Below are positions 1,239 through 44,584 of a stretch of 46,629 nt of DNA, piece after piece. A program made the translations under genes and the position numbers. The DNA comes from Clostridia bacterium (lineage in GTDB: Bacteria; Bacillota; Clostridia; Christensenellales; CAG-1252). The stretch lies in the NCBI GenBank assembly GCA_017455605.1, contig JAFSZO010000042.1, positions 1 to 46,629 on the forward strand, in the 5' to 3' direction. The notes beneath the pieces were generated by a model. The model saw only the letters and a list, made by a program, of their open reading frames with translations. It ran no database searches and was not told the DNA's origin. Position 1 is the first letter of the stretch. The number at the start of each line of letters is the position of its first letter.

Positions 1239-1778
1239 ATGGAGAAACACTATACCATCGAGATCGCCGGCTTAAAGCGCGATCTGCCCATCTGTAAGGC
1301 GGGCGACAACCTCTATATCGGCGCGTTCGTGATGTTCTCGGATGTGGAACTCACCGTCAAGGCGGCGACAGCTCTCCTCGAGAGGTGCCCCGACTTCGAC
1401 GTGATCCTGACCGCCGAGTCCAAGGGCATCCCCCTCGCCTACGAGATGGCTCGTCAGAGCGGCAAGCGCTATCTCGTCGCACGCAAAGGCGCGAAGCTGT
1501 ATATGCAGACCCCCGTCAAAGTGTACGTAAAGTCCATCACGACCGCGAAGATGCAGGAGCTCTACCTCGATAAATCCGAGCTGGACAGTCTGAAAGGTCA
1601 GCGCGTGCTGATCGTGGACGACGTGGTCTCCACCGGCGAGTCGCTCTCCGCCCTCGAACAGCTGCTCTCCTACGCCTCGGGCACGGTGGTCGGCAAAGCC
1701 TTCGTCCTCGCAGAGGGCGACGCGGCGAAGCGCGACGACGTGATTTATCTGCAGTACCTGCCCCTCTTCTTTGAATAA
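1239..1778 (+). CDS. Type I phosphoribosyltransferase family protein (adenine/xanthine PRT-like)
   Basis: PRPP-binding loop VLIVDDVVSTGESL. Starts 3 nt after the hpt stop. Substrate cannot be assigned from sequence alone. Confidence 0.75.
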   Translation: MEKHYTIEIAGLKRDLPICKAGDNLYIGAFVMFSDVELTVKAATALLERCPDFDVILTAESKGIPLAYEMARQSGKRYLVARKGAKLYMQTPVKVYVKSITTAKMQELYLDKSELDSLKGQRVLIVDDVVSTGESLSALEQLLSYASGTVVGKAFVLAEGDAAKRDDVIYLQYLPLFFE

Positions 1779-1779
1779 A

Positions 1780-1900
1780 GGCGACGTATTGCGGCGCATA
1801 TTCTTCGCTAACTATTTCATCAAAAGGCAGTTACGTACGATCAGTACGCGCCTGCCTTTTTCTTCAAAGAGCGCTCGCCTCTGCACCACTCTCCGCCGCC
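1780..1900 (+). repeat. R1 intergenic element, copy A
   Basis: GACGTATTGCGGCGCATATTCTTCGCTA...AAAAGGCAG-TTACGTAC-GATCA-GTACGCGC-CTGCCTTTT...GAGCGCTCGCCTCTGCACCACTCTCCGCCGCC. Starts 2 nt after the PRT stop. Aligns with the copies at 3466, 7555, 8084 and 26786. Confidence 0.85.
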
Positions 1901-2094
1901 TTTTGTTTAACTAAATTGTTAATTGAACAGCCATCACGCGGTTTTTGCAAAGCCTTGTATTCACAACCTTTCTTCGCTGCCTTTTGTTATTTCTTATCTC
2001 AACGCGCCTCTATCCCCCACGCTCCGCCACTTTACAAAAACGAAAAATCCTGTGATCTGTGTTAAAAAAGGCACAATCAAAACGAGGGAAAGCT

Positions 2095-3413: not shown

Positions 3414-3465
3414 AGACCCAAAAACACGAGCGCGGAGGGTTACTAAGAAACATTATCAACAAAAG

Positions 3466-3586
3466 ACAGCGGAGAGTGGTGCGAAGACAAACGCTCATCA
3501 AAAAGGCGAGCAGGAGCGTACTTGATCGTACGTGACTACTCGCCTTTGCAGATGTAGTGAAGTATTCGTGCCGCTATACGCTGTCG
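3466..3586 (-). repeat. R1 intergenic element, copy B (inverted relative to copy A)
   Basis: ACAGCGGAGAGTGGTGCGAAGACAAACGCTC...AAAGGCGAG...GCGTACTTGATCGTACGTGA..CTCGCCTTT...GTGCCGCTATACGCTGTCG. Ends 1 nt before the glnN stop codon. Confidence 0.85.
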
Positions 3587-3587
3587 T

Positions 3588-5681
<2,094 letters not shown>

Positions 5682-5702
5682 GTAGGTTCCTCCTATCATC
5701 CT

Positions 5703-6761: not shown

Positions 6762-6834
6762 CAAAAACGCGTGTCTTTGCCCATAAATCGCGTTATAATG
6801 TAAATAAATAATCTTTATGCGAGGATCTTGCATT

Positions 6835-7566
6835 ATGAGAAATTGGGAAAAAGAAAAGGAAAAACGCGTCGCCTTTATCCGCGATTTGCTCGCAACTTCG
6901 GGCGCAAAAGGCGTCATTTTCGGCAATAGCGGCGGCAAGGACAGCGCTCTGGTCGCAGCCCTCTGCTCCTTCGCGACGAAGAACGTGCTGGGCGTCATTA
7001 TGCCCTGCCACTCCAAGCGCAACTTCGGCGAGGACAAGGAAGACGGGCTCGCCGTCGCCGCGAAATACGGCGTCGAGACGATGATCGTCGACCTGACGAA
7101 GGTGCGCGCGGACCTCATCGAAGCGGTGGGCACGCCCCTCGAGAGCAAGGGGGCGCTGTCCAACATCGCGCCTCGCCTGCGTATGACCACCCTCTACGCG
7201 ATAGGAGCCGAGCGCGGCTACCTCGTGGCCGGTACGGGCAACAAGAGCGAGCGCTATATGGGCTACTTCACGAAATGGGGGGACGGCGCGTGCGACTTCA
7301 ACCCCATCGCAGACCTCGGCGCGACCGAAGTCTTCGACTTCCTGCGCTATCTCGGCGCGCCCGACCACGTCGTGACCAAGGCACCCTCAGCTGGACTCTT
7401 CGAGGGACAAACGGACGAGACGGAGATGGGCGTGACCTACGCCGAGATCGACGCTTATCTGCGCGGCGAACCCGTGTCGAACGAGGCGAAAGCGATCATC
7501 GAACGCTACCACCGCGCGGCGGGGCACAAGATGGTCCTCCCCCCCGTGTATCACGACGACGTATAA
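6835..7566 (+). CDS. nadE: NH3-dependent NAD+ synthetase
   Basis: PP-loop GNSGGKDSALVAAL, plus GTGNKSERYMGYFTKWGDGACDFNPI. ATG 6835 lies 8 nt after GAGGAT. An alternative ATG is at 6817. Confidence 0.9.
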   Translation: MRNWEKEKEKRVAFIRDLLATSGAKGVIFGNSGGKDSALVAALCSFATKNVLGVIMPCHSKRNFGEDKEDGLAVAAKYGVETMIVDLTKVRADLIEAVGTPLESKGALSNIAPRLRMTTLYAIGAERGYLVAGTGNKSERYMGYFTKWGDGACDFNPIADLGATEVFDFLRYLGAPDHVVTKAPSAGLFEGQTDETEMGVTYAEIDAYLRGEPVSNEAKAIIERYHRAAGHKMVLPPVYHDDV

Positions 7567-7676
7567 CGGCGCAGATGCTTCGCTACCGCGTCGCTCGGAG
7601 GTAGTTACGTACAAGGAGTACGCGCCTGCCACACTCGCTCGCGGAGCGCTCGTCTCTGCACCGTTCTCCGTCGTCG
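7555..7676 (+). repeat. R1 intergenic element, copy C
   Basis: GACGACGTATAACGGCGCAGATGCTTCGCTA...GTTACGTACAAGGAGTACGCGCC...GAGCGCTCGTCTCTGCACCGTTCTCCGTCGTCG. The nadE stop codon (7564-7566) lies inside the element. Confidence 0.8.
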
Positions 7677-7814
7677 TGAGTTTGTTTTATTCGACGAACG
7701 AATAAAATGACCTTAAAAAGATTTTTCCTTTCTCCTTCGAGAGAAGAGAAGGCGGAGAGGAAATAGAGGCGAGTGACTTGAAAAAAGCATTCATAATATA
7801 ATTCTCTTCCATCG

Positions 7815-7890
7815 CACGCCATCAAGCTTGGAGCGGAAAAAAAATAAAAAAATGCGAACGTGGAGAGGAGTGTAGCGGCGAGTAACTCCG
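7815..7890 (+). repeat. ~52-nt direct repeat (copy 1) fused to a truncated R1 head
   Basis: CACGCCATCAAGCTTGGAGCGGAAAAAAAATAAAAAAATGCGAACGTGGAGAG, then GAGTGTAGCGGCGAG, a degenerate form of the R1 GGAGAGTGGTGCAGAGGCGAG head. Repeated at 8039. Confidence 0.75.
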
Positions 7891-8038
7891 TAATATATGT
7901 TCAACAAACGATCCTAATCCAAGAGAGCACGCAGAAGGGGGCAGATGCGAGGCTCGCTATGAGGCTTCGCCTCTACGCGGACCTTCGGTACGGAAGCCGA
8001 CGGAAAGGCGCGAATGGAAACAAACAAATACACCCCCG

Positions 8039-8092
8039 CACGCCATCAAGCTTGGAGCGGAAAAAAATATAAAAATTTGCGAACGTGGAGAG
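8039..8092 (+). repeat. ~52-nt direct repeat (copy 2), running into R1 copy D
   Basis: CACGCCATCAAGCTTGGAGCGGAAAAAAATATAAAAATTTGCGAACGTGGAGAG, near-identical to 7815-7867. Confidence 0.8.
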
Positions 8093-8206
8093 TGGTGCAG
8101 AGACAAGCGCTCTCCGAGGAGGCGGGTCTGAGCGTACTCCGTGTACGTGATGCCCGACGACGCAGGAAGTTAGCGCAGTATATGTGCCGCTATACACGTT
8201 CGCCGG
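8084..8206 (-). repeat. R1 intergenic element, copy D (inverted relative to copy C)
   Basis: CGTGGAGAGTGGTGCAGAGACAAGCGCTC...GCGTACTCCGTGTACGTGA...GTGCCGCTATACACGTTCGCCGG. Ends 6 nt before the trmL ATG and supplies its GGAG SD. Confidence 0.85.
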
Positions 8207-8212
8207 AGTAAT

Positions 8213-8713
8213 ATGTTTAACGTAGTACTGTTGCAACCCGAAATCCCCCAAAACACAGGCAACATCGCCCGCACCTGCGCGGCGACGAACTCCGTTCTGC
8301 ACCTCGTGGAGCCGCTCGGCTTCGACATCGACGAGAAAGCCGTCAAGCGCGCGGGACTGGACTATTGGGACAAACTGACGATCAAAGTTTACGAGAATTT
8401 GGCGGATTTTTACGAGCAAAACAAACAAAACGTCGAGAACGGCGCGACGATGTGGTACGCCTCCACCAAGGCAAAGATCGTCTACTCCGACGCGCGTTAC
8501 AAGGACGGAGATTACCTCATCTTCGGCAGGGAGACCAAGGGGATCGACGAGGAGGTCCTCGCGGCGAACTACGACCGAACGGTCCGCATCCCGATGTGGG
8601 GCGAGATCCGCTCGCTGAACCTCTCCAACAGCGTCGCGATCGTGCTGTACGAAGCGCTGCGCCAAAACGGGTTCGACCGCTTCACACTGACGGGAAAACT
8701 GAGGACGAAATGA
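8213..8713 (+). CDS. trmL: tRNA (cytidine/uridine-2'-O-)-methyltransferase, SpoU/TrmL type
   Basis: MFNVVLLQPEIPQNTGNIARTCAA...LIFGRETKGI...RIPMWGEIRSLNLSNSVAIVLYEALRQ is the TrmL signature. Confidence 0.9.
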   Translation: MFNVVLLQPEIPQNTGNIARTCAATNSVLHLVEPLGFDIDEKAVKRAGLDYWDKLTIKVYENLADFYEQNKQNVENGATMWYASTKAKIVYSDARYKDGDYLIFGRETKGIDEEVLAANYDRTVRIPMWGEIRSLNLSNSVAIVLYEALRQNGFDRFTLTGKLRTK

Positions 8714-8732
8714 GGCGAGGCGAGCCCCTCTC

Positions 8733-8764
8733 AATTAGGAATTAGGAATGAGGAATTAGGAATT
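8733..8764 (+). repeat. Heptamer microsatellite (AATTAGG)n, outer cap of the left inverted repeat
   Basis: AATTAGG AATTAGG AATGAGG AATTAGG AATT. The reverse complement (AATTCCT)n occurs at 14373-14397. Confidence 0.9.
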
Positions 8765-9035
8765 GCGGACGCCGAATGCGTTCCGCAATGTCGAGCGATA
8801 GCGAGATACATCATGCTTGCGTAGCAAGTACATCATGTCGCCGAAGGCGTGCTGCCGATGCCGCACAGGCGGAGGCAATGTCGAGCGTAGCGAGATACAT
8901 CATGTTTGCGGAGCAAATACATCATGTCGCCGCAGGCGATACAAAAAAGTGAAGTTGCTTCGCAGTGAAGTACGGCTGACGCCGTGTGAAGCCTATCGCA
9001 GTGAAGTTTGTACCGGATGGTACAAGTTGAGGGTC
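8765..9035 (+). repeat. Left arm of large inverted repeat (IR-L), a linker-hairpin array
   Basis: Internal tandem units at 8787-8849 and 8877-8938, built as (AATGTCGAGCG.TAGCGAGATACATCATG-hairpin-TACATCATG-hairpin). Then four GTGAAGT words alternate with hairpins. 8892-9035 is near-identical to the reverse complement of 13982-14125. Confidence 0.9.
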
Positions 9036-13981: not shown

Positions 13982-14372
13982 GACCCGCAACTTGTGCCTT
14001 TTGGCACAAACTTCACTACGCAGTAACTTCACACGGCGGTAGCCGTACTTCACTGCGAAGCAACTTCACTTTTTTGTATCGCCTTCGGCGACATGATGTA
14101 TTTGCTGCGCAAACATGATGTATCTCTCCCTGCGCGGCATTGTCCCTCGCTGTTGCCGCGGCTCTGTCGAGTCGCTATCGCAACGTTTCTCGGGACTGCC
14201 TTGCCTCGCTCGAAAACTGATGTTTTCTTCGCGCTTTGTCGTAGCGTTCATAGGCTCGTTCGCGATGCACTTGCGCGCTACGTTTGCAAGTGCTATTCGC
14301 TCCGCAGCCCATTTCCGCTACGATAATAGGATGAAGTTGGGAAAAGTATTTTTGGAGCCGAAGGCGACCCTT
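13982..14372 (-). repeat. Right arm of large inverted repeat (IR-R)
   Basis: 13982-14125 is the reverse complement of 8892-9035 and carries the same CATGATGTAT and ACTTCAC words. The inner ~245 nt is only partly related to IR-L. Confidence 0.9.
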
Positions 14373-14397
14373 AATTCCTAATTCCTAATTCCTAATT
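14373..14397 (-). repeat. Heptamer microsatellite (AATTCCT)n, outer cap of the right inverted repeat
   Basis: AATTCCT AATTCCT AATTCCT AATT, the reverse complement of the run at 8733-8764. Confidence 0.9.
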
Positions 14398-14494
14398 GAA
14401 AAGACGCCTCTTGGCGTCCGTATTTCCGCATTCTGCATTAGCGCGCGGTTCGCATTTATCATTGGAATGGCAAAAACAGCTCGCCGATAGCCTC

Positions 14495-24496: not shown

Positions 24497-26782
24497 ATGG
24501 ATTTCGAGATTTTCGACGGCGCAATGGGTACGATACTCCAAGCTCGGGGACTCCCCGCGGGCGCCTTCCCCGAGACCTACAACCTGACCCACCCGGACGT
24601 CGTCCTCGCGGTGCATAAAGCCTACGTCGCGGCAGGCGCTGACGTCGTGACCGCGAACACCTTCGGCGCAAACCCCTTCAAGATGAAGGGCATGGACGTA
24701 AAGAAGATCATTGCCGAAGGCGTGCGGATCGCCAAGGCGTCCGGCGCAAAGAAAGTCGCCCTCGATGTCAGTTCACACGGCGCCCTTCTCGAGCCGAACG
24801 GCTCTCTTTCTTTCGACGAAGCATACGATAATTACGCTTTCATTATGCGCGCTGGCGCAGAGGCGGGCGCGGATCTCGTGCTGATCGAGACGATGAGCGA
24901 CCTGCTCGAGGCGAAATGCGCCCTGCTCGCCGCAAAGGAGAACACCGAGCTCCCGGTCTACGTCACGATGACCTACACCGAGGACGGCAGGACCTTCCTC
25001 GGGACCGACCCCGTTACGGCGACCATCACGCTCTGTTCGCTCGGCGCGGACGCGGTGGGCGTGAACTGCTCGCTCGGCGCGCGCGACCTCTTGCCCGTCG
25101 TCAAAAAGATAACGGAATACGCCACCTGCCCCGTGATCGTGCAACCCAACGCGGGGTTGCCGCGCATCGAGGGAAACCGAACGGTCTACGACGACACGCC
25201 CGCGACCTTCGCCGCCGCGATGGGCGAGATGGCGGACCTCGGCGTGACCATCCTCGGCGGGTGTTGCGGCACCGACCCCGAATACATCCGCGCGCTCAAG
25301 GGACTCCTTAGGGACAAAACGCCCGTAAAGCGCAACGTAAAACGGCATACCGCCGCCACCTCGGCGACCAAGACCGTCTTTCTGGACGAGGGCGTAAAGG
25401 TCATCGGTGAGAGGCTGAACCCGACGGGAAAAAAGAAGCTCAAAGCCGCCCTGATCGAAGGGGACGTGGACTACCTGCTACACGAAGCGATCGACCAAGA
25501 ACGCGCAGGCGCGGACATCCTCGACCTCAACGTCGGACTGCCCGAGATCGACGAAGCGGCGACCCTCGTCAAGGTGATGAAAGAGGTCTCCTCGACCGTC
25601 GCCCTGCCCATCCAGCTCGACTCCTCGGATAAACGCGCACTGGAGCGCGCCTGCCGCCTCTACTGCGGCAAACCCATCATCAACTCGGTGAATATGAAGA
25701 AAGAGAGCCTCGACGCGATCGTGCCCATCGCGAAAAAGTACGGCGCGACCCTGATCGGACTCTGCCTCGGCGACACGATGCCCAAGACCCACGAAGAGCG
25801 TTTCGCCTACGCGACCGCCCTCGTGGAGGAACTGACCGCGCGCGACATCCACAAGAGTGACGTCGTGATCGACTGCCTGGTGCTGACCATCGCGACGGAT
25901 GAGACGCAGGCGGAGGAGACCGCCCTCGCCGTGAAACAGGTCACCGAAGAGCTCGGCGTCTGCACGGTGCTCGGCGTCAGCAATATCAGCTTCGGGATGC
26001 CCGACAGGCTGAAGATCAACGCCGCTTTTCTCTCCAAGTGTCTGCAAGCGGGACTCTCCGCCCCTATCCTGAACCCCCTCGTCGCGGAATATGCCGAGGT
26101 GCTCGGGGGCAAACTGCTGACCCTCGACACCTCCTCCTACTTCACCTTCGACGGGAGCGGCGCGGAAGGCATCCGCGGTATGGTCCTCTGCGGCGCGGTG
26201 GGCGGCATCGAAGAGGCGGTGCGCGAGGCGCTGAAGACCAAAAGTCCCCTCGACGTCATCAACGGCGAATTCATCCCCGCGCTCGACGAGATCGGCGCAA
26301 AGTTCGAGAAAGGCGAAGTCTTTCTGCCCCGCCTGATCGCCGCCGCGGAGGTGGTGAAAAAGGGTATGGACGTGATGCGCGCGGGCGCGGACGAGGACGA
26401 CAGCCGTCCCGACGTGATCCTCGCCACGGTCAAGGGCGACATCCACGACATCGGCAAGAACATCGTCAAAATGTTGCTCCGCAGTTACGGCTACAAGGTC
26501 TTGGACCTCGGCAAGGACGTGCCCGAGAGCGAGGTCGTCGCCGCGTGGGAGAGGACGCACGCCCCCCTGATCGGGCTCTCCGCCCTGATGACCACCACCG
26601 TTCCCTCTATGAAGACCACGATCGACGCCCTGCGTGCGGCAGGATCGACGGCGAAGGTCGCGGTCGGCGGCGCGGTACTGACCGAAAACTACGCGCGAAC
26701 CGTCGGCGCGGACTACTACGGCAAGGACGCAAGGGCGACGGTGAAGATCGCCGAGGCGATCATACGCAAAGACAGCGTATAA
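24497..26782 (+). CDS. metH: Cobalamin-dependent methionine synthase lacking the activation domain
   Basis: Hcy-binding domain (GAMGT, GGCCGT), pterin-binding domain (INSVN), and B12 motif GDIHDIGKNIV...LSALMTTT. ATG 24497 follows AAGAGGT. The ORF-track start at 24080 is rejected. Confidence 0.9.
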   Translation: MDFEIFDGAMGTILQARGLPAGAFPETYNLTHPDVVLAVHKAYVAAGADVVTANTFGANPFKMKGMDVKKIIAEGVRIAKASGAKKVALDVSSHGALLEPNGSLSFDEAYDNYAFIMRAGAEAGADLVLIETMSDLLEAKCALLAAKENTELPVYVTMTYTEDGRTFLGTDPVTATITLCSLGADAVGVNCSLGARDLLPVVKKITEYATCPVIVQPNAGLPRIEGNRTVYDDTPATFAAAMGEMADLGVTILGGCCGTDPEYIRALKGLLRDKTPVKRNVKRHTAATSATKTVFLDEGVKVIGERLNPTGKKKLKAALIEGDVDYLLHEAIDQERAGADILDLNVGLPEIDEAATLVKVMKEVSSTVALPIQLDSSDKRALERACRLYCGKPIINSVNMKKESLDAIVPIAKKYGATLIGLCLGDTMPKTHEERFAYATALVEELTARDIHKSDVVIDCLVLTIATDETQAEETALAVKQVTEELGVCTVLGVSNISFGMPDRLKINAAFLSKCLQAGLSAPILNPLVAEYAEVLGGKLLTLDTSSYFTFDGSGAEGIRGMVLCGAVGGIEEAVREALKTKSPLDVINGEFIPALDEIGAKFEKGEVFLPRLIAAAEVVKKGMDVMRAGADEDDSRPDVILATVKGDIHDIGKNIVKMLLRSYGYKVLDLGKDVPESEVVAAWERTHAPLIGLSALMTTTVPSMKTTIDALRAAGSTAKVAVGGAVLTENYARTVGADYYGKDARATVKIAEAIIRKDSV

Positions 26783-26785
26783 AAA

Positions 26786-26905
26786 GACGGCGTATAGCGG
26801 CGCGAATCCTGCTCTACGACTTCAGTGGCGGGTAGTTACGTACAGTAAGTACGCGCCTATCCGCCACTTCGTTGAGCGTTTGTCTTCACACCACTCTCCG
26901 CCGCC
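26786..26905 (+). repeat. R1 intergenic element, copy E (solo)
   Basis: GACGGCGTATAGCGGCGCGAATCC...AGTGGCGG-GTAGTTACGTACAGTAAGTACGCGCCTAT-CCGCCACT...GAGCGTTTGTCTTCACACCACTCTCCGCCGCC. Starts 4 nt after the metH stop. Confidence 0.85.
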
Positions 26906-26937
26906 TTAACCGAGGCTTTAATCAAAGAATTTGTTAT

Positions 26938-26973
26938 AAAAAATGCGGCGTGCGCCGCATTTTTCCTTTTTTT
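26938..26973. terminator. Bidirectional Rho-independent terminator
   Basis: AAAAAATGCGGC GTGC GCCGCATTTTT followed by CCTTTTTTT. Confidence 0.8.
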
Positions 26974-26979
26974 GATGAA

Positions 26980-27057
26980 TTATTTGCTGAGCAGGTCGTG
27001 CAGGACGGTCATATCCCAAACGCCCATTTCCTCCACGGAGAGTAGAGCAGCCTTGAG
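26980..27057 (-). pseudogene. Relic of a gltX 3' end, diverged and with an internal in-frame deletion
   Basis: The - strand reads ..LKAALLSVEEMGVWDMTVLHDLLSK*. Compare the intact gltX tail LEAALPAVEEMGAWDMTVLHDLL[~55 aa]LLSK* (27703-27944). Nucleotide similarity is visible over 26980-26997 and 26998-27057. Confidence 0.75.
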
Positions 27058-27702: not shown

Positions 27703-29130
27703 TTATTTACTCAACAGGTCGATCGAAAACTTCAAGCGGCGGATGCATTCCTCCTTGCCGAGGAGAGCCGCCATTTCAGTGGCGCCGCCGGGGGTGGATG
27801 CCCTGCCCGTGATCGCGATGCGGAAGGACCACAACATCTGTCCCTTCTTGAGCCCTGCCTGCTCCGCCGCCGCGACGAGCAGATCGTGCAGCACCGTCAT
27901 ATCCCACGCGCCCATTTCCTCCACGGCGGGCAGCGCGGCTTCGAGTGCGGTCAAAGCGACCGAGGCGTCGGTCTTCATCTTTTGATGGTCAAACAGCGCG
28001 AGATCGTAGGCGCCGAACTCCTCCAAAAAGTCCACGAGGGACGGGATCTCCGAAAGGATCTCCACGCGGGGGATCAGGAGGGGCGCGAGCAGATTGTAGT
28101 CGTACTTGCCGCCCACCTTGGAGTTGTCGAGGAAAGGGCGCGCCGCCGCGAGGAACTCCTCGACGGACATATTCTTGATGTAGCTCGCATTGAGCCAACG
28201 CAGTTTCGCCTCGTCAAAGATCGCGGGCGAGATGCACACGCCCTCCACCGAGAACAGGCGGATGAGGTCGTCCATCGACAACATCTCTTCGTTGTTCTTC
28301 GGGCTCCAGCCGAGCAGCGCGATGTAATTCACGATCGCCTTGGGGAGATAGCCCTTCTTCACGAAGTCGTCAAAGTTGGCGTCGCCGTAGCGCTTGCTGA
28401 GCTTCCGCTCCTTGTCCTTCATAATGGGGGGCAGATGGATGTACTGCGGACGCTCCCATCCGAACGCGTCGTAGATCAGGTTGTACTTCGGCGTGCTGGA
28501 CAGATACTCGTTGCCGCGGATCACGTGGGTGATGCCCATCAAATGGTCGTCCACGACGTTCGCGAAGTTGTAGGTCGGCATCCCGTCGCTCTTCAAAAGG
28601 ACCGCGTCCTCCATATCCTTGTAGGCGACCGAGATCTCGCCGTAGACGAGGTCGGTGTAGGTGCTGACGCCGTCGGTCTCGGGGATGTTCTGCCTGACGA
28701 CGTAGCTGTCGCCGCGCGCGAGGCGCTCCGCGACTTCCTCCTTGGAGAGGCGCAGGCAACGCTTGTCGTACTTCTCGGTGCCGCCGTCCTTCATCTCGCG
28801 CCCTTTGCAGAAGCAATAGTAGGCACCGCCCTTGGCGATCAGCTCCTCCGCGTATTTCTTGTAGATCTCCTTGCGTTCGCTCTGAACGTAGGAATAGTTT
28901 CCCGCCTCTTTGCCGGGGCCCTCGTCGTAGTCGATGCCCGCCTCCTTGAGCGTATTGAAGATCACGTCCACCGCGCCCTCGACGTAGCGACCTTGGTCTG
29001 TGTCCTCGATCCTGATGATGAACTTGCCGCCCGCGTTCTTCGCGAAAAGATAGGCGTAAAGCGCCGTGCGCAGGTTGCCGATGTGCATAAAGCCCGTGGG
29101 GCTGGGTGCGAATCTCGTTCTGACTTCCAT
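27703..29130 (-). CDS. gltX: Glutamyl-tRNA synthetase
   Basis: Class I motifs: HIGN in RFAPSPTGFMHIGNLRTA, and KLSKR. Confidence 0.93.
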   Translation of the reverse strand: MEVRTRFAPSPTGFMHIGNLRTALYAYLFAKNAGGKFIIRIEDTDQGRYVEGAVDVIFNTLKEAGIDYDEGPGKEAGNYSYVQSERKEIYKKYAEELIAKGGAYYCFCKGREMKDGGTEKYDKRCLRLSKEEVAERLARGDSYVVRQNIPETDGVSTYTDLVYGEISVAYKDMEDAVLLKSDGMPTYNFANVVDDHLMGITHVIRGNEYLSSTPKYNLIYDAFGWERPQYIHLPPIMKDKERKLSKRYGDANFDDFVKKGYLPKAIVNYIALLGWSPKNNEEMLSMDDLIRLFSVEGVCISPAIFDEAKLRWLNASYIKNMSVEEFLAAARPFLDNSKVGGKYDYNLLAPLLIPRVEILSEIPSLVDFLEEFGAYDLALFDHQKMKTDASVALTALEAALPAVEEMGAWDMTVLHDLLVAAAEQAGLKKGQMLWSFRIAITGRASTPGGATEMAALLGKEECIRRLKFSIDLLSK

Positions 29131-35634: not shown

Positions 35635-37524
35635 CTATTCCCCGATCGGCGCGTCGCCGTCAACGCAATGCACGGTCGCTGCGGGGACGTCCTTGGTCAT
35701 ATTGGCTCCTTTCTTGACGGCGCGCCACTCGTCGGCGGTGCCCGTAAAGGTGATGTCCGTCAGACTTCCACACCACAGGAACGCCGCCTCCCCGATGCGC
35801 TTCACCGAGGACGGGATCGTGATCGAGGTCAGACTATTACACCAAGAAAAGGCGGCTCGCCCGATACTCTTCACGGAAGGGGGGATCTCGATGGCAGTCA
35901 GGTTCTTACACTCGGAAAAGGCAGCGTTCCCGATGCTCGTCAATCCCTCGGGGAGCTCGACGCTCGTCAGACTCGTGCAATCCTTAAAGGCGTTGATCCC
36001 GATACTCTCCACCGAAGCGGGAAGCGTGATCGAGGCAAGATTCTTACACGACAGGAACGCAGACGCCCCGATGCTCGTCACGCCGTCCGCGATCGCGACG
36101 GAGACCAGGTCGGCGCGACCCTGAAACGAGCTCTCCCCAATACTCGTCACGGGAGTCTTCGCGATGAGGGCGGGGATCGTCACGTCGACGTCCTTCCCCT
36201 TATAGCCCCCGATCTCGTAGCCGTTCTCCGTCTTTCTCAGCGTGAACACCTTTTTCCAATCCGCCAAGGCGTACTCCCGCACGCCCAGCGCCTTGTCCTG
36301 CCGACTCTGCGCGTAGGCGTCGAGTTTCTTTCGGCTGAACCTCTTCTGCTTGTACTCCAAGAGCGCCGCCGTGATCCCTACCTTACCCGCGGCGGCGGCG
36401 ATCGCTCCGTCCAATTCGTCTATGCCGAACGAAATCCCGATAGGCTCCTCCGTCATTCGCGCAAAAGCAGCCGCGTCGTCATCCTCTGTGATCAGCGAGA
36501 GGAAAGCCTCCTTCTTCCTTTTCAAATACGAGAGGTGATCGGGATAGAGCGGGCTCGCCCCATCCGACAACCAAACGTAGACCGTGGTCGTCTTCGCCTC
36601 TGTATCTTTACATTTACCAAACGCCCAATGCGGCACGACCGGACAATTGAGAAACGACGTGCTCGTGGCACTCTTCGGCATCGGCATCTCGATGCGTCTC
36701 AGAGCCGCGCACCTCGAGAACACGGATCTGCCCAAGAGCTCCAACTCGCCTTTAACGACGACCCGCTCCAACGCCTTGCACCCCGCGAACGCCTCCTCCG
36801 ATACCTCCGTCACGGAGGCGGGGATCTCGACCGAGGTCAAACTCGCGCAATTGTAAAACGCCCTGTACTCGATGCTCGTCACACCGAGAGGCATCTCGAC
36901 GGCGGTCAAACCGACGCACCCCGCAAAAGCCTCCCTTCGAATGCTCTCCACGCCGCTCGGGAGGGAGATCGAGGTCAAGCTCGCGCAATCGCGAAACGTC
37001 CAACGATCAATGCTCGCCAAGCTCTCGGGCAAGGTGATCGCGGACAGATTCGTGCAGCCGTCAAATACGTTGTCGCTGAGGAGCGTCACACCGCTCGGTA
37101 ACGCGATCGAGGGCAAGCTCGTACAGTCTCTGAACGCATCCGACTCAATGCGGGACAACGAACTGTCCTCGGGAAACGTGACGGAGGTCAAGGCGCTGCA
37201 CTCGCAGAACGCATATTGTCCGATGCTCGTCATGCCCTTCCCGATCACGACGGCAGTCAACCCGACGCAACCGCTGAACGCGCAGACGTCAACGCGCGTA
37301 ACGGAGTCGGGGATCTCCACCGCGCGCAGCCGTTCACAACCGCTGAACGCCCATCCCCCGATAAACGTCAAACTCTCGGGGAGGGCGACCGAGAGCAGGC
37401 GCTTTTGCTTTTGAAACACCTTCTCTTCGATGCGCGTCACGCCCTCGGGGACGACCACGTCTCCGCCCTTGCCGACGTACTTGGTCAGCACGCCGTTTTC
37501 TATGATGAAATCTTGTTTTGCCAT
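35635..37524 (-). CDS. BspA-type leucine-rich repeat (LRR_5) protein, 629 aa, no signal peptide
   Basis: Repeats of the form IP.SVT.IG..AF..C..LTSV.LP. Architecture is LRR block, ~170-aa helical linker, LRR block. The N-terminus MAKQDFIIENGVLTKY is not hydrophobic. Confidence 0.85.
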   Translation of the reverse strand: MAKQDFIIENGVLTKYVGKGGDVVVPEGVTRIEEKVFQKQKRLLSVALPESLTFIGGWAFSGCERLRAVEIPDSVTRVDVCAFSGCVGLTAVVIGKGMTSIGQYAFCECSALTSVTFPEDSSLSRIESDAFRDCTSLPSIALPSGVTLLSDNVFDGCTNLSAITLPESLASIDRWTFRDCASLTSISLPSGVESIRREAFAGCVGLTAVEMPLGVTSIEYRAFYNCASLTSVEIPASVTEVSEEAFAGCKALERVVVKGELELLGRSVFSRCAALRRIEMPMPKSATSTSFLNCPVVPHWAFGKCKDTEAKTTTVYVWLSDGASPLYPDHLSYLKRKKEAFLSLITEDDDAAAFARMTEEPIGISFGIDELDGAIAAAAGKVGITAALLEYKQKRFSRKKLDAYAQSRQDKALGVREYALADWKKVFTLRKTENGYEIGGYKGKDVDVTIPALIAKTPVTSIGESSFQGRADLVSVAIADGVTSIGASAFLSCKNLASITLPASVESIGINAFKDCTSLTSVELPEGLTSIGNAAFSECKNLTAIEIPPSVKSIGRAAFSWCNSLTSITIPSSVKRIGEAAFLWCGSLTDITFTGTADEWRAVKKGANMTKDVPAATVHCVDGDAPIGE

Positions 37525-37570
37525 AAGTTTCCTTTTTCTGTTTTTTATCTATCTCCGCGTGTGGCGAAGG

Positions 37571-40500
37571 TCACATGATCGAGGGAGGCACGTCGCCGTC
37601 CGAGCAATTCACCTTCGTGACGGGCAGGTCCGCCGCCCAGTTCGCCCACTTGTCGATGGCTGTCCACTCGGCGATGGTGCCCGCAAACGTGACGGAGGAC
37701 AGCGCACCGCAAAGAAAGAAGACGTTCTGCCCGAGTCTCCGCAACGTGGAAGGCAGCGTGATCGCGCTCAGCGAGCCGCAACGCAAAAACGCATAGCCGC
37801 CGATGTCGGTGACGCCTTCGGGGATCGCGACCGCGGTCAGAGTATGGCAATCCTCAAAGGCTTTCGGTCCGATGCGCGTCACCGGGGTGTTCCCGATGGC
37901 GGCGGGCACGTACAAGACGGTGTCCCTGCCGTCGTACCTCGTGATCACGTACCGTGACGCCTCCTTTCTCAGCCTAAACACCTCCCTCCAATCCGCCGCC
38001 GTGTACTCCCTCACGCCCAGCGCCTTGTCCTGCAGATCCTTATCGTAGGCGTCGATGCGCCGCCGGCTGTAGGTCTTGTTCTTGTATGACAGCAAAGCTG
38101 CCGTAATGACCGCCTTTCCCGCCGCGGCGTCGATCGCCGTGTCCAATTCGCTTATGCTGTACTTGATGCCGACGGAGGGGTCCGTCAATGCCGCAAAGAG
38201 CGCAACGTCTTCCTCCTCCACGATTCGGCTTAGGAACCGTCTCTTGTTTTTGTTCAGATAGGCGAGGTACTCCTGCTCGATCGGGCGCTCGGCGTCCGCC
38301 AAGCGAAGGGTCACGGAGGCGTCCTGCACCAATTGATTGCCGTACAAAGCGATCATCCAGGCAGGGACGACCGGGCACCTGAGGAAGGGGTTCACCCCCA
38401 TCCTCACCGGACGAGGCATCTTGACGCGGCGCAACCCCTTGCAATCCATAAACGCCGCCGTTCCCAGCTTGTCCAATTTGCCTTCGATGACGACGGTCTC
38501 GAGAGAGTAACAGCCATCGAACGCATTCTCCCCGACCTCGGTGACGGAGGCAGGGAGGGTGATCTCACTCAGCCGCTTGCATTGCCGAAAGGTCGCGAGC
38601 TCGATGCGCCTCACTCCATGCGGGATCGTGACAGACCTCAGATTCTCGCACAAATGGAAGGCGAAATTGCCGATGCTCCTCACGGACGGTGGAATGATCA
38701 TCTCGGTGAGGTCCAAGCAATGCCAAAACGCCGAATCGTAAATAAACCTCGTGCGCTCGTTGATCCTGCATTGCGTGATGCACGACTGTTTCGCCTTGAC
38801 AAAGATCAAGTAGGGGTTTTCCGCGTCGCCCAAATACACACCGTCTTCGTGCTCGGTGTAGCTCAGCGAGGAACATTGGTCGATGATCCCCCTGCCGAGC
38901 TCCGTCACAGAGGACGGCACGAAGAGCGCAGTCAACGCGGTGCAACAGCCGAACGCCGACCCCCCGATGCGGGTCACACCGTGCGGGACCTCGAGCTCGG
39001 TCAGCCCCGTGCATTTGTAAAAAGCACAATCCCCGATACTCGTCACGGAGGCGGGGATCTCGATGCTCGTCAGAGTCGCACAGCCGCAGAAAGCGGAATC
39101 TCCGATGCTCGTCACGCCCTCGGGGATCACGCTCGCGCGGCATCCTACGACCAGCGTCTTGGTCTCGGTCTCGATGAGGCAGTTGTTTTCGCTGTGATAA
39201 CGCGGATTGCCCTCGGCGACCGTCAACGACGTCAGTTCCTCACAGTACGAAAACGCCTCCTCGCCGATGTCGGTCACGCCGGCGGAGATCTCCACCTCGG
39301 TCAGCGCACAGCACCCCGAGAATGCCGACGCCCCGATCCGCGTCACCTCGAAAGGAATGGTCACGGCGGTCAGTTGCCGACAGCGAATAAATGCTCTGTC
39401 ACCGATGCTCGTGACGGGGTACTTGCCGATCTTGGCGGGGATGCGCAGCTCGGCGGCATCGCCTATGTACCTCACGATCTCGTACTCCGATCCCTTCTTT
39501 TTCAGCTCAAACAGCTTTCTCCACTCCGCAGGCGAGAGGGGTCTCCCTCCGAAGATCGCTTCCTCCTGCTTTAAGGCGTAGGCGTCCAGCATCACTTGGC
39601 TGTAGGTCCGCCGCTTGTAGTCCAAGAGCGCCGCGCTGAGCGCCGCTCTGCCCCCGACGGCGTCCAGCGCCGTGTCGAGTTCCCCGATGCCGAAGCGAAT
39701 GCCGATGGGCGGCTCCGTCATCGCCGCAAAAGCAGCCACGTTGTCATTCTCCGCGATCAGCGAAAGGAATCGCGCCTTTTTGCGTTTCAAATAGGCGAGG
39801 TACTCGGGATAGAGGACGCGATCCGACTGCGACAACCAGCGGTAAACGCTCTCCTCCTTTATCGGTTGATTTTTACAACGGGGAAACTCCCAGCTCGGCA
39901 CGACGGGACAACGGAGGAAGGGATACCCCTCCACCTTCGTCGGCGCGGTCATATCGATGCGATGTAATACGTAGCACCTCGAGAAGGCACGCTCGCCGAG
40001 CAGATCCAATCTGCCTTTGACTGTCACGGCATTGAGACTGCGACACCCCTCGAAGGCGCTCTCCCCGATCTCGGTGACCGACGCGGGGATCGTGACGGAA
40101 AGCAGAGCTCTGCAATAGGCAAACGCCTGATTTCCGATGACGGTCACGCCTTCTCGGATCGTGACGGAGGTCAGCGCATCACACCGGGAAAAGGAGTCGT
40201 CCGCGAGCCTCGTCAGAGAGGGCGGCAACGTGACCGAAGTCAAGCTCTTACAGAAAGCGAAAGCGCCCTGCCCGAAGGTCGTCAGCCGCCCGTCTTCGGC
40301 GAAGGTGAGCGAGGCGATGCGATCACAGCTGAAGAACGCCTGCTTCCCGATGCTCGTTACACTCGGAGGAATCGCGATCGCAGTCAACGCCTTGCACTCA
40401 CAAAACGCACCCTCCGAGATCCTCGTCACGCCCGAAGGGATCGTGACGGAGGCGAGGTGCTTGCACCGGGCGAACGCATACCGTTCGACGCACCGCACGG

Positions 40501-40651
40501 AGGACGGCAACGTGACCGAGGTCAAGGTGTCGCACATGGAAAAGGCGGACTCCCCGATCGAGAGGATGCCGTCCGGGATCACGACCGCCCCGCCTTTGCC
40601 TCGATAGCCCGTCAGTACGCCGTTTTCAACGATAAAGTCTTCCTTCTCCAT
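37571..40651 (-). CDS. BspA-type leucine-rich repeat (LRR_5) protein, ~1026 aa, no signal peptide
   Basis: Same repeat type. The LRR-linker module occurs twice, then a final LRR block. ATG 40651 (MEKEDFIVENGVLTGY) lies 8 nt after GGAAGG. Confidence 0.85.
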   Translation of the reverse strand: MEKEDFIVENGVLTGYRGKGGAVVIPDGILSIGESAFSMCDTLTSVTLPSSVRCVERYAFARCKHLASVTIPSGVTRISEGAFCECKALTAIAIPPSVTSIGKQAFFSCDRIASLTFAEDGRLTTFGQGAFAFCKSLTSVTLPPSLTRLADDSFSRCDALTSVTIREGVTVIGNQAFAYCRALLSVTIPASVTEIGESAFEGCRSLNAVTVKGRLDLLGERAFSRCYVLHRIDMTAPTKVEGYPFLRCPVVPSWEFPRCKNQPIKEESVYRWLSQSDRVLYPEYLAYLKRKKARFLSLIAENDNVAAFAAMTEPPIGIRFGIGELDTALDAVGGRAALSAALLDYKRRTYSQVMLDAYALKQEEAIFGGRPLSPAEWRKLFELKKKGSEYEIVRYIGDAAELRIPAKIGKYPVTSIGDRAFIRCRQLTAVTIPFEVTRIGASAFSGCCALTEVEISAGVTDIGEEAFSYCEELTSLTVAEGNPRYHSENNCLIETETKTLVVGCRASVIPEGVTSIGDSAFCGCATLTSIEIPASVTSIGDCAFYKCTGLTELEVPHGVTRIGGSAFGCCTALTALFVPSSVTELGRGIIDQCSSLSYTEHEDGVYLGDAENPYLIFVKAKQSCITQCRINERTRFIYDSAFWHCLDLTEMIIPPSVRSIGNFAFHLCENLRSVTIPHGVRRIELATFRQCKRLSEITLPASVTEVGENAFDGCYSLETVVIEGKLDKLGTAAFMDCKGLRRVKMPRPVRMGVNPFLRCPVVPAWMIALYGNQLVQDASVTLRLADAERPIEQEYLAYLNKNKRRFLSRIVEEEDVALFAALTDPSVGIKYSISELDTAIDAAAGKAVITAALLSYKNKTYSRRRIDAYDKDLQDKALGVREYTAADWREVFRLRKEASRYVITRYDGRDTVLYVPAAIGNTPVTRIGPKAFEDCHTLTAVAIPEGVTDIGGYAFLRCGSLSAITLPSTLRRLGQNVFFLCGALSSVTFAGTIAEWTAIDKWANWAADLPVTKVNCSDGDVPPSIM

Positions 40652-40697
40652 ATCTTTTCCTTCCGATGGCACCCCGCCGCACGCGGCAGAGGGGCAT

Positions 40698-44507: not shown

Positions 44508-44584
44508 TGGCGCACATGATTGGATTCGAACCAACGACACCCGGCGTCGGAGGCCGGTGCTCTATCCAGCTGAGCTACATGTGC
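44508..44584 (-). tRNA. tRNA-Arg (anticodon CCG), CCA encoded
   Basis: GCACATG-TA-GCTC-AGCTGGATA-GAGC-A-CCGGC-CUCCGAC-GCCGG-GTGTC-GTTGG-TTCGAAT-CCAAT-CATGTGC-G-CCA. The cloverleaf folds by hand, and the anticodon loop gives CCG. Confidence 0.92.

Follow-up and report, generated by a model that had tools for sequence, protein, structure and literature searches.

The 46,629-nt contig JAFSZO010000042.1 of the Clostridia bacterium assembly GCA_017455605.1 (Christensenellales; CAG-1252), hereafter called the window in the sense of the whole stretch of DNA that was analysed, carries five copies (A to E) of a hairpin repeat that we refer to as R1. A covariance model (CM) run with its filters off over the full 46.6 kb recovered exactly the five copies that an earlier note, made from the sequence alone, had described, all of them within 27 kb, and these are the sole matches of the model in the window (Table 1; the strand given for each copy is the better-folding one). 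The inner motif CGTAC-N5-GTACG occurs exactly four times in the window vs. 0.00 times expected, copy B being missed by this pattern because of its 6-nt loop. The conserved inner stem and the variable loops of the earlier note were confirmed, except that the loops had been written there as reverse complements; in the + strand/copy orientation they read GATCA, GATCAA, AAGGA, ACGGA, and AGTAA for A to E, respectively. The genes around the copies are housekeeping ones, i.e., hpt, a phosphoribosyltransferase gene, a type III glutamine synthetase gene, asnA, nadE, trmL, tilS, cca, and a methionine synthase-like gene. The adjacency to stop codons proposed for four of the five copies holds for A, B, C, and E. 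Specifically, the TAA stop (1776-1778) of the phosphoribosyltransferase gene (1239-1778) overlaps the closing stem (P1) of copy A, which is convergent to a small helix-turn-helix (HTH) gene (~2095-2379, - strand); the TGA stop of the glutamine synthetase gene (3588-5699, - strand) immediately precedes P1 of copy B; copy C covers the final four codons of nadE (6817-7566) together with its stop, which is the element's own TATAA (7564-7566); and P1 of copy E begins at 26784, next to the TAA stop (26780-26782) of the metH-like open reading frame (ORF). Copy D is the exception, as it lies in the leader of trmL, adjoins the ATG at 8213, and has its folded strand sense to trmL. An identical-protein look-up for the phosphoribosyltransferase returned only contigs of the same species with the arrangement unchanged, and an exact-protein look-up for trmL gave no match.

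Table 1. Positions of R1 copies and associated features (window coordinates unless a locus is named).
Feature	Position	Strand	Remarks
R1 copy A, whole element	1776-1905	-	CM 123.4 bits
R1 copy B, whole element	3460-3589	+	CM 123.1 bits; 6-nt apical loop
R1 copy C, whole element	7551-7680	-	CM 118.5 bits
Partial duplicate	7811-7878	+	Region upstream of D plus first ~20 nt of D, i.e., a truncated copy
R1 copy D, whole element	8076-8205	+	CM 110.3 bits
R1 copy E, whole element	26782-26910	-	CM 122.9 bits
Copy E, P1, gene-proximal strand AAGACGGCG	26784-26792		Pairs with CGCCGCCTT at 26899-26907, one mismatch
Copy E, conserved TATAGCGGCGCG	26793-26804		TAT is one side of the 3x3 loop; AGCGGCGCG is the P2 strand, partner 26887-26895
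Copy E, apical hairpin P5, ACGTAC-AGTAA-GTACGC	26838-26854		Folded strand GCGUAC/GUACGU, closing G.U
Copy E, distal part	26887-26907		CACACCACT (P2 partner), CTC (other internal-loop side), and P1 distal strand CGCCGCCTT
Bidirectional intrinsic-terminator-like hairpin (AAAAAATGCGGCGTGCGCCGCATTTTT), separate from R1	26938-26973		Follows copy E
CCCCRAR...YTYGGGG palindromes	L029 7540-7568; L070 4227-4250; L003 358-383; L091 6874-6900; L005 316-343, 479-506

To describe the distribution of the family, one genome per species was scanned with the pattern ACGTAC-N5-6-GTACGC-N25-45-CACCRYTCTCC, which returned at least 112 loci from at least 35 genomes, and a covariance model built from ten copies was then run on the scanned loci. 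The model found 157 non-redundant copies among the loci listed, with up to four on a 5.5-kb contig, and near-identical copies were found inside single genomes. Among the matches listed, the hosts are almost all Christensenella, Christensenellaceae, or Clostridia metagenome-assembled genomes (MAGs) from gut and rumen; one host is cultured (Pumilibacter intestinalis, Clostridia), one MAG carries the label Desulfovibrionaceae, and one the label Alphaproteobacteria (labels as deposited). No R1 match was found in IMG/VR contigs, plasmids, or phages, and hence inheritance looks chromosomal and vertical. The earlier note had not recognised R1 as a named family, which agrees with our searches: Rfam 15 gave no match at gathering score or at E<=5, and no family touched any R1 copy even with the limit at E<=5-10, the sole match at gathering score in the window being a tRNA gene (44511-44584, - strand). 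A literature search by taxon and by conserved motifs found no relevant description of R1 either. R1 is an undescribed, lineage-restricted family of interspersed hairpin repeats.

R1 is a single, rod-like hairpin of ~130 nt, larger than first described. The two-tier hairpin of the earlier note had the inner and outer stems right, including the complementarity of the outer stems in A, B, and E, their weakness in C and D, and the conserved flanks; it was incomplete in that the fold contains five to seven helices, among them the hypervariable 9-bp closing stem P1, and the bounds proposed for copy E (26786-26905) clip 2-4 nt at each end. From the outside in, the folded strand consists of P1, a GAG//AUA 3x3 purine loop, a conserved 9-bp stem (AGUGGUGCR/YGYRCCGCU) that holds two invariant U.G pairs, two variable stems, a GA-rich 2x2/3x3 internal loop, and the apical hairpin GCGUAC-N5-6-GUACGU (P5). 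The pairs of P5 are invariant save for a covarying G-C to A-U change in seven copies, and its loop is hypervariable. The sequence of P1 varies in almost every copy, at its central and outer positions (e.g., GACAGCG/CGCTGTC in B, CACGACGACG/CGTCGTCGTG in C, and GCGAACGTG/CACGTTCGC in D). Its length of 9 bp is the rule: among 119 copies, pairing is 0.86-0.97 for bp 1-7, ~0.8 for bp 8-9, and at chance level beyond. Three copies (L061, L083, and L092) have a P1 of 20-21 bp that reaches into the native coding sequence, and in L061 the extension is paired to codons of the conserved ornithine carbamoyltransferase C-terminus. The TATAGCGGCGCG motif next to P1 includes the TAG that is used as the host stop codon in other copies. 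The conserved ends of the element, GGAGAGTGGTGC and GYRCCGCTATAC, lie ~95 nt apart and form imperfect inverted repeats (8 of 12 positions), neither of them a palindrome of the REP type.

Covariation was measured on the 150-sequence model alignment, with 500 shuffles and slid pairing partners as controls, and bears out the compensatory changes of the earlier note, which turned out to be abundant and far above both controls. Standard pairs fill 86.6% of the cells compared to 65.9% in the shuffles, both-sided changes are found at 40 of 43 pairs, the covariation score of 0.527 (vs. 0.189 in shuffles) was reached by none of the 500, and slid partners pair in merely 21-53% of cases. One position of P1, for instance, is CG in 55 copies, GC in 53, and AU in 14. 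Summed over all pairs, G.U outnumbers A.C by 645 to 141 on the folded strand. Near-invariant among these are the two U.G pairs of the basal stem and the closing G.U pair of the apical one, and two more positions switch between G-C and G.U. The variable arms hold similar numbers of G.U and A.C (about 76 vs. 85 in a tally of per-pair counts), which means that the strand asymmetry stems from the conserved helices.

It is important to note that covariation in a DNA palindrome alone is no proof of selection on RNA, since hairpin-templated correction could yield covariation as well. One alternative explanation would make R1 a self-maintaining DNA palindrome, with no enzyme or function behind it, that is spread by ectopic recombination or templated repair and kept paired by template switching. 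The balance of G.U and A.C in the variable arms is what a DNA-level process would give, the rare 20-21-bp stems that run into coding sequence look like palindrome extension, arrays and fragments are present, and no associated enzyme was found (see below). Template-switch correction, however, should also erase conserved mismatches, and yet specific mismatches, wobble pairs, and internal loops persist invariant across at least 35 genomes; nor does such a process explain the strict orientation and the stop-codon adjacency of the copies. We consider this explanation quite improbable.

The strand on which R1 folds better is the reverse complement of the strand first described. It has the higher stability in 106 of 106 copies (mean -66.4 vs. 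-47.6 kcal/mol), and with DNA parameters the - strand of copy E reaches -35.6 kcal/mol (z -5.9) and its + strand -28.4 kcal/mol (z -4.0). Accordingly, folding is favoured on the strand antisense to the gene at whose stop R1 lies, which argues against a plain stabiliser in the 3' untranslated region; the proposal that R1 acts as such a stabiliser, or as a processing site, in the upstream mRNA is weakened by this result and by the excess of G.U over A.C.

The copies share one orientation and either adjoin the 3' ends of ordinary genes directly or reach a few codons into them. A co-oriented ORF of at least 80 codons ends within 60 nt of the TATAGCGGC motif in 85 of 107 copies, compared to 10 with an ORF ending at the other side. 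Relative to TATAG, the stops fall at three main positions: at -12, directly 5' of the 9-nt P1 strand (TAG 16, TAA 11, TGA 3); at -8, inside P1 (TGA in 9 of 11); and at +2, where the stop is the element's own TAG or TAA (15 copies). TAG is enriched among these stops (37% vs. a background of 18%). We examined and rejected the idea that R1 supplies stops in three frames: positions -12, -8, and +2 do represent the three frames, but only two of them close early (median 3 and 16 nt), the third staying open for ~147 nt (118 copies). For 92 of 120 copies, the gene downstream of the folded strand is convergent to it (median gap -1 to -2 nt), and on the opposite side of R1 a spacer of 150-230 nt is followed by a gene in either orientation. 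This arrangement, a convergent abutting gene on one side and a spacer on the other, places R1 where transcription units end and antisense to the adjoining gene. Possible reasons for the stop-codon adjacency and fixed orientation are that AT-rich, TATAR-like gene ends are preferred as targets, that copies elsewhere are selected against, or that R1 has a function coupled to gene ends.

Several of these features would also be expected if R1 acted in the mRNA of the upstream gene, as a 3'-end hairpin that stabilises or terminates the transcript or stalls terminating ribosomes. That is, most copies have the stop within their closing stem or 0-2 nt away from it, the element is situated at transcription-unit ends, the sense strand still folds well (see the means and the z score of -4.0 for copy E above), and a T-rich tail follows P1 in window copies A to D. 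In E. coli, REP sequences situated no more than 15 nt from a stop codon are reported to stall terminating ribosomes, and R1 resembles them in that a stable hairpin starts a few nucleotides from the stop of the upstream gene, although it is four times longer and its favoured fold is on the other strand. The latter point speaks against the mRNA role: besides the higher stability of the other strand in every copy compared, all five strongly asymmetric pair positions are G.U on that strand and A.C mismatches on the mRNA strand. A T-tract (5 or more T among the 9 nt that follow P1, read on the sense strand of the gene) is found in 21 of 119 copies overall and a separate terminator within ~60 nt in 9 of the 119, leaving ~75% of copies with neither, and the flank after the folded strand is A-rich. 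Hence R1 is no canonical intrinsic terminator, in agreement with the earlier note, which had placed a separate terminator after copy E where we also find one (Table 1). Finally, copy D is located upstream of an opposite-sense gene. Overall, a role in the upstream mRNA appears unlikely.

Comparison of related loci reveals that R1 has multiplied within genomes and that its copies have been gained, lost, truncated, and arrayed. In L074, which is syntenic (~77% nucleotide identity to the window), copy D is kept and copy C is absent after nadE; the NadE C-terminus is ...TYKE* in L074 vs. ...VYHDDV* in the window, where the last codons and the stop come from R1. Insertion sometimes replaces the last residues of a protein along with its stop codon. 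More pairs of filled and empty sites were found in which the neighbouring protein has 82-100% amino-acid identity, including pairs above 95%. One 'empty' site (L110) still has a piece of the R1 tail besides the gene-proximal P1 strand, and thus is a deletion derivative. At L039 (6057-6590) four R1 units form a head-to-tail array in which only the first has the gene-proximal P1 strand and two bear the covarying apical variant ACATAC...GTATGC. In addition, ~60 solo ends were recognised, within 8-kb neighbourhoods, as truncated R1 copies and not as the ends of a longer coding element. A second family of palindromes, CCCCRAR...YTYGGGG (24-29 nt), is nested in or beside R1 (5 of 8 within 60 nt vs. 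4.7% expected; Table 1); none of these occurs in the window.

Three ideas on how copies are placed were tried and set aside. A P1 derived from the target, or made by fold-back copying of the gene end, is contradicted by the chance-level pairing beyond bp 9 and by the deletion at L110, and is kept only as an exception for the three copies with long stems. Insertion into pre-existing terminator hairpins suits L092 and is contradicted by the empty orthologues and the 9-bp rule. A direct repeat of P1 plus TATA just upstream, as the footprint of insertion, is weak overall (6.72 vs. 6.51 +/- 0.075) and striking in a few copies, including B and E of the window.

Other copies have persisted for long. 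R1 lies behind the same gene in genomes whose neighbouring proteins are just 45-69% identical. Copy A is 98.5% identical to its orthologue in L076, compared to 83.6% for the flanking genes, and copy D is 84.6% identical to that in L074 (flanking genes ~77%), the two D orthologues differing by a compensatory A-T to G-C change in P1.

A few further observations concern the copies and their surroundings. The 125 nt that adjoin copy A (window 1906-2034) are unique in the data set and ~97% identical to L076 vs. ~84% for the adjacent genes, and synteny breaks right after them; they may be either a constrained non-coding segment or the result of a recent exchange. A second P1 strand with a TTTTGTT tail occurs at ~1975-1995, ~85 nt past copy A, and a degenerate R1-like internal fragment at ~7922-7956. 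In the low-GC MAG Lapin-001 bin79 (the one labelled Alphaproteobacteria), R1 is embedded in a composite repeat of 315-375 nt with 90-95% identity (loci L007, L012, L021, L030, L044, L055, L072, L086, L102, L103, and L108); part of the composite is a long AT-rich hairpin that carries a T-run, and one composite copy is without the R1 core. A larger autonomous element in this genome was considered and rejected because the repeat unit is just 315-375 nt and contains no gene.

The high conservation of single copies and the deep orthologous retention are the reasons why a host-level RNA function stays the main rival to a mobile-element interpretation. Under this alternative, R1 would be a functional structured RNA, either a small RNA or cis-element made from the folded strand (compare copy D in the trmL leader) or a protein-binding hairpin at the ends of convergent units, that is, many regulated sites with no mobility. 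The very strong covariation, the invariant G.U pairs, GAG//AUA, and GA-rich loops, the conservation of the motif across a bacterial order, the compensatory change between orthologues that outconserve their flanking genes, and the retention behind the same genes at deep divergence are all consistent with it, as are the AT-rich stretch and 150-230-nt spacer upstream of the folded strand and a promoter-like site upstream of D. On the other hand, the folded strand is antisense to the abutting gene in the 92 of 120 copies above, with no terminator after it, and terminator-like signals are located just upstream of it in E and B. A conserved promoter upstream of the folded strand was sought and not found, as only scattered AT-rich hexamers without a consensus were present; many copies are truncated, arrayed, or nested; close relatives differ in their copies; and there is no Rfam relative. 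We therefore regard a structured RNA as a possibility to be taken seriously, if a somewhat doubtful one.

No mobilising enzyme was recognised near R1. A tblastn search with IS200 TnpA, IS608 TnpA, and E. coli RAYT (approximate query sequences) against 885 kb around the 157 copies gave nothing below E=0.1, and the single weak match falls within the gene of a membrane protein. When 1,700 ORFs from the loci were clustered all against all, only housekeeping families resulted (e.g., MATE and ABC transporters, L7/L12, L10, GyrA, DnaN, MnmE, and ATP synthase alpha), with no recurrent unexplained ORF family, transposase, or integrase in the neighbourhoods of the 157 copies. The suggestion of the earlier note that R1 could be a REP/RAYT-like target stands as far as the nearest analogue goes, whereas the IS200/IS605 TnpA or RAYT homologue that it would call for is lacking in these neighbourhoods.

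Among known systems, R1 may be compared with the attachment sites (attC) of integrons, which are imperfect hairpins of ~60-140 nt located after the stop of an ORF, with conserved unpaired bases and a variable centre, that fold antisense to the ORF. R1 shares with attC the site after or overlapping an ORF stop, the antisense folded strand, the maintenance of structure over sequence, and a similar length, and this common hairpin geometry is what would speak for R1 as an attC-like, single-stranded recombination site that marks mobile gene cassettes. The core sites R'' (RYYYAAC) and R' (GTTRRRY), however, are absent from the R1 alignment and consensus, there is no unidirectional cassette array and no integrase nearby, and the copies, which take both orientations within 27 kb, have syntenically conserved housekeeping genes as neighbours. 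An attC-like role is thus largely refuted, and we give it hardly any weight.

MITE-like palindromic repeats (miniature inverted-repeat transposable elements) that fold as RNA include ERIC of enterobacteria, the Correia elements of Neisseria, RUP and BOX of pneumococcus, and bcr1 of the Bacillus cereus group. Like R1, these are interspersed intergenic sequences of 100-170 bp with long imperfect hairpins; they are often situated in transcribed gene ends and are able to alter mRNA ends and neighbouring ORFs. R1 differs from them in that its termini (P1) vary rather than being the conserved part, it is strongly strand-asymmetric with invariant non-canonical pairs, and no parent insertion sequence was found in the 8-kb neighbourhoods.

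The closest analogue of R1 is the REP/RAYT-like (REPIN) element, a doublet of REP sequences that is mobilised by a RAYT transposase, the product of a single-copy gene with the repeats at its flanks. REPINs have been described as hairpins formed from two conserved inverted ends, with a spacer that shows compensatory changes, and as occurring in clusters and arrays (Bertels & Rainey 2011, PMC3116915). By analogy, R1 has a hairpin on the scale of ~100 nt with two conserved but imperfectly inverted end motifs, which are not REP-type palindromes, a less conserved spacer, and frequent compensatory changes; tens of copies or more per genome, in clusters and tandem arrays; and a chromosomal, apparently vertical inheritance with long persistence, folding having been proposed for REPINs in single-stranded DNA (ssDNA) or RNA. 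R1 adds a hypervariable closing stem and an invariant apical hairpin, and its hosts belong to a Clostridia lineage as opposed to the Proteobacteria that host REPINs. That is, R1 behaves like a REPIN-type element but belongs to no described family.

Based on the within-genome multiplication, gain and loss, arrays, fragments, and nesting, the chromosomal, lineage-restricted distribution, and the strand-specific hairpin with invariant non-canonical features, we favor the reading of R1 as a non-autonomous, REPIN/MITE-like element that is recognised in the form of a folded single strand, to which reading we would assign a probability of roughly 0.5. Several findings weigh against it. Neither a transposase nor a RAYT (Y1 transposase) nor an integrase lies beside any of the 157 copies, a search limited to neighbourhoods. 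The ends of R1 match at 8 of 12 positions with neither being palindromic as in REP, and REPINs are dispersed through extragenic space while R1 copies keep to stop codons and to one orientation. R1 also shows no clear terminal inverted repeats flanked by target-site duplications, which would have marked a known type of MITE, given that the outermost 9 bp vary and the comparisons of filled and empty sites reveal no consistent flanking direct repeat. Finally, that single copies are conserved above their neighbouring genes is unexpected for decaying selfish DNA and fits a host function, possibly at the RNA level.

As for the mechanism of such a REPIN/MITE-like element, the conserved asymmetric loops and wobble pairs may form a recognition surface for a trans-acting protein that handles the folded single strand, most likely a nuclease or recombinase encoded elsewhere in the genome. 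We lean toward ssDNA rather than RNA as the folded strand because it is antisense to the abutting gene and because terminator-like signals are found directly upstream of it in B and E. That R1 has long persisted by vertical descent, with some of its orthologous copies highly conserved, suggests that the host tolerates or benefits from it, a possible benefit being a large hairpin at the ends of transcription units. It is tempting to go further and to speculate that R1 marks a mobile or recombination system of Clostridia that is undescribed and specific for single strands, in which a protein would read the asymmetric rod (GAG//AUA, the U.G pairs, and the GCGUAC hairpin) antisense to the gene. 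In such a system, the element would be placed at, or within a few codons of, a stop in a fixed orientation, analogous to attC/IntI or REPIN/RAYT, with the closing stem re-written. This more specific proposal seems to us rather unlikely on the current data.

Additional repeats were noted in the window that are distinct from R1. Inverted repeats of ~300 nt (8731-9035 and 13982-14399) flank a 5-kb block with tilS, cca, and one unassigned ORF; they share segments of 127 nt at 88%, 47 nt at 94%, 39 nt, and 28 nt, have heptamer runs (AGGAATT/AGGAATG) at their outer ends, and have a relative in L065 (79%). Runs of GGAAT heptamers also adjoin R1 fragments in L074, L107, and L024. At 35635-40672 (- strand), very large ORFs (629 and 1033 aa) consist of 69-nt (23-residue) repeats, and three copies of a 272-nt unit with 64-72% identity occur as well; the appearance is that of leucine-rich-repeat surface proteins. 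Part of the glutamyl-tRNA synthetase gene, 69 nt in length, recurs at 83% identity (26989-27057 vs. 27877-27945) between the terminator after copy E and an HTH gene, and this duplicate is probably a gene fragment.

In summary, R1 is unusual in its welding to stop codons, its hypervariable closing stem, the folding of the antisense strand, and its order-wide persistence. Its covariation also serves as a caution that covariation in palindromic repeats is not automatically RNA structure. Since R1 alters the C-termini and stops of core enzymes (NadE, ornithine carbamoyltransferase, and MetH), it matters for gene annotation; it may also shape mRNA ends, and it offers a lineage-specific marker for strain typing. 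The Christensenellales are heritable, health-associated gut bacteria that are genetically almost unstudied, and their genomes carry tens of precisely structured R1 copies each. If R1 is indeed REPIN-like, it would extend long-lived, vertically inherited replicators of this kind to the Firmicutes and would point to a single-strand nuclease or recombinase in these bacteria.

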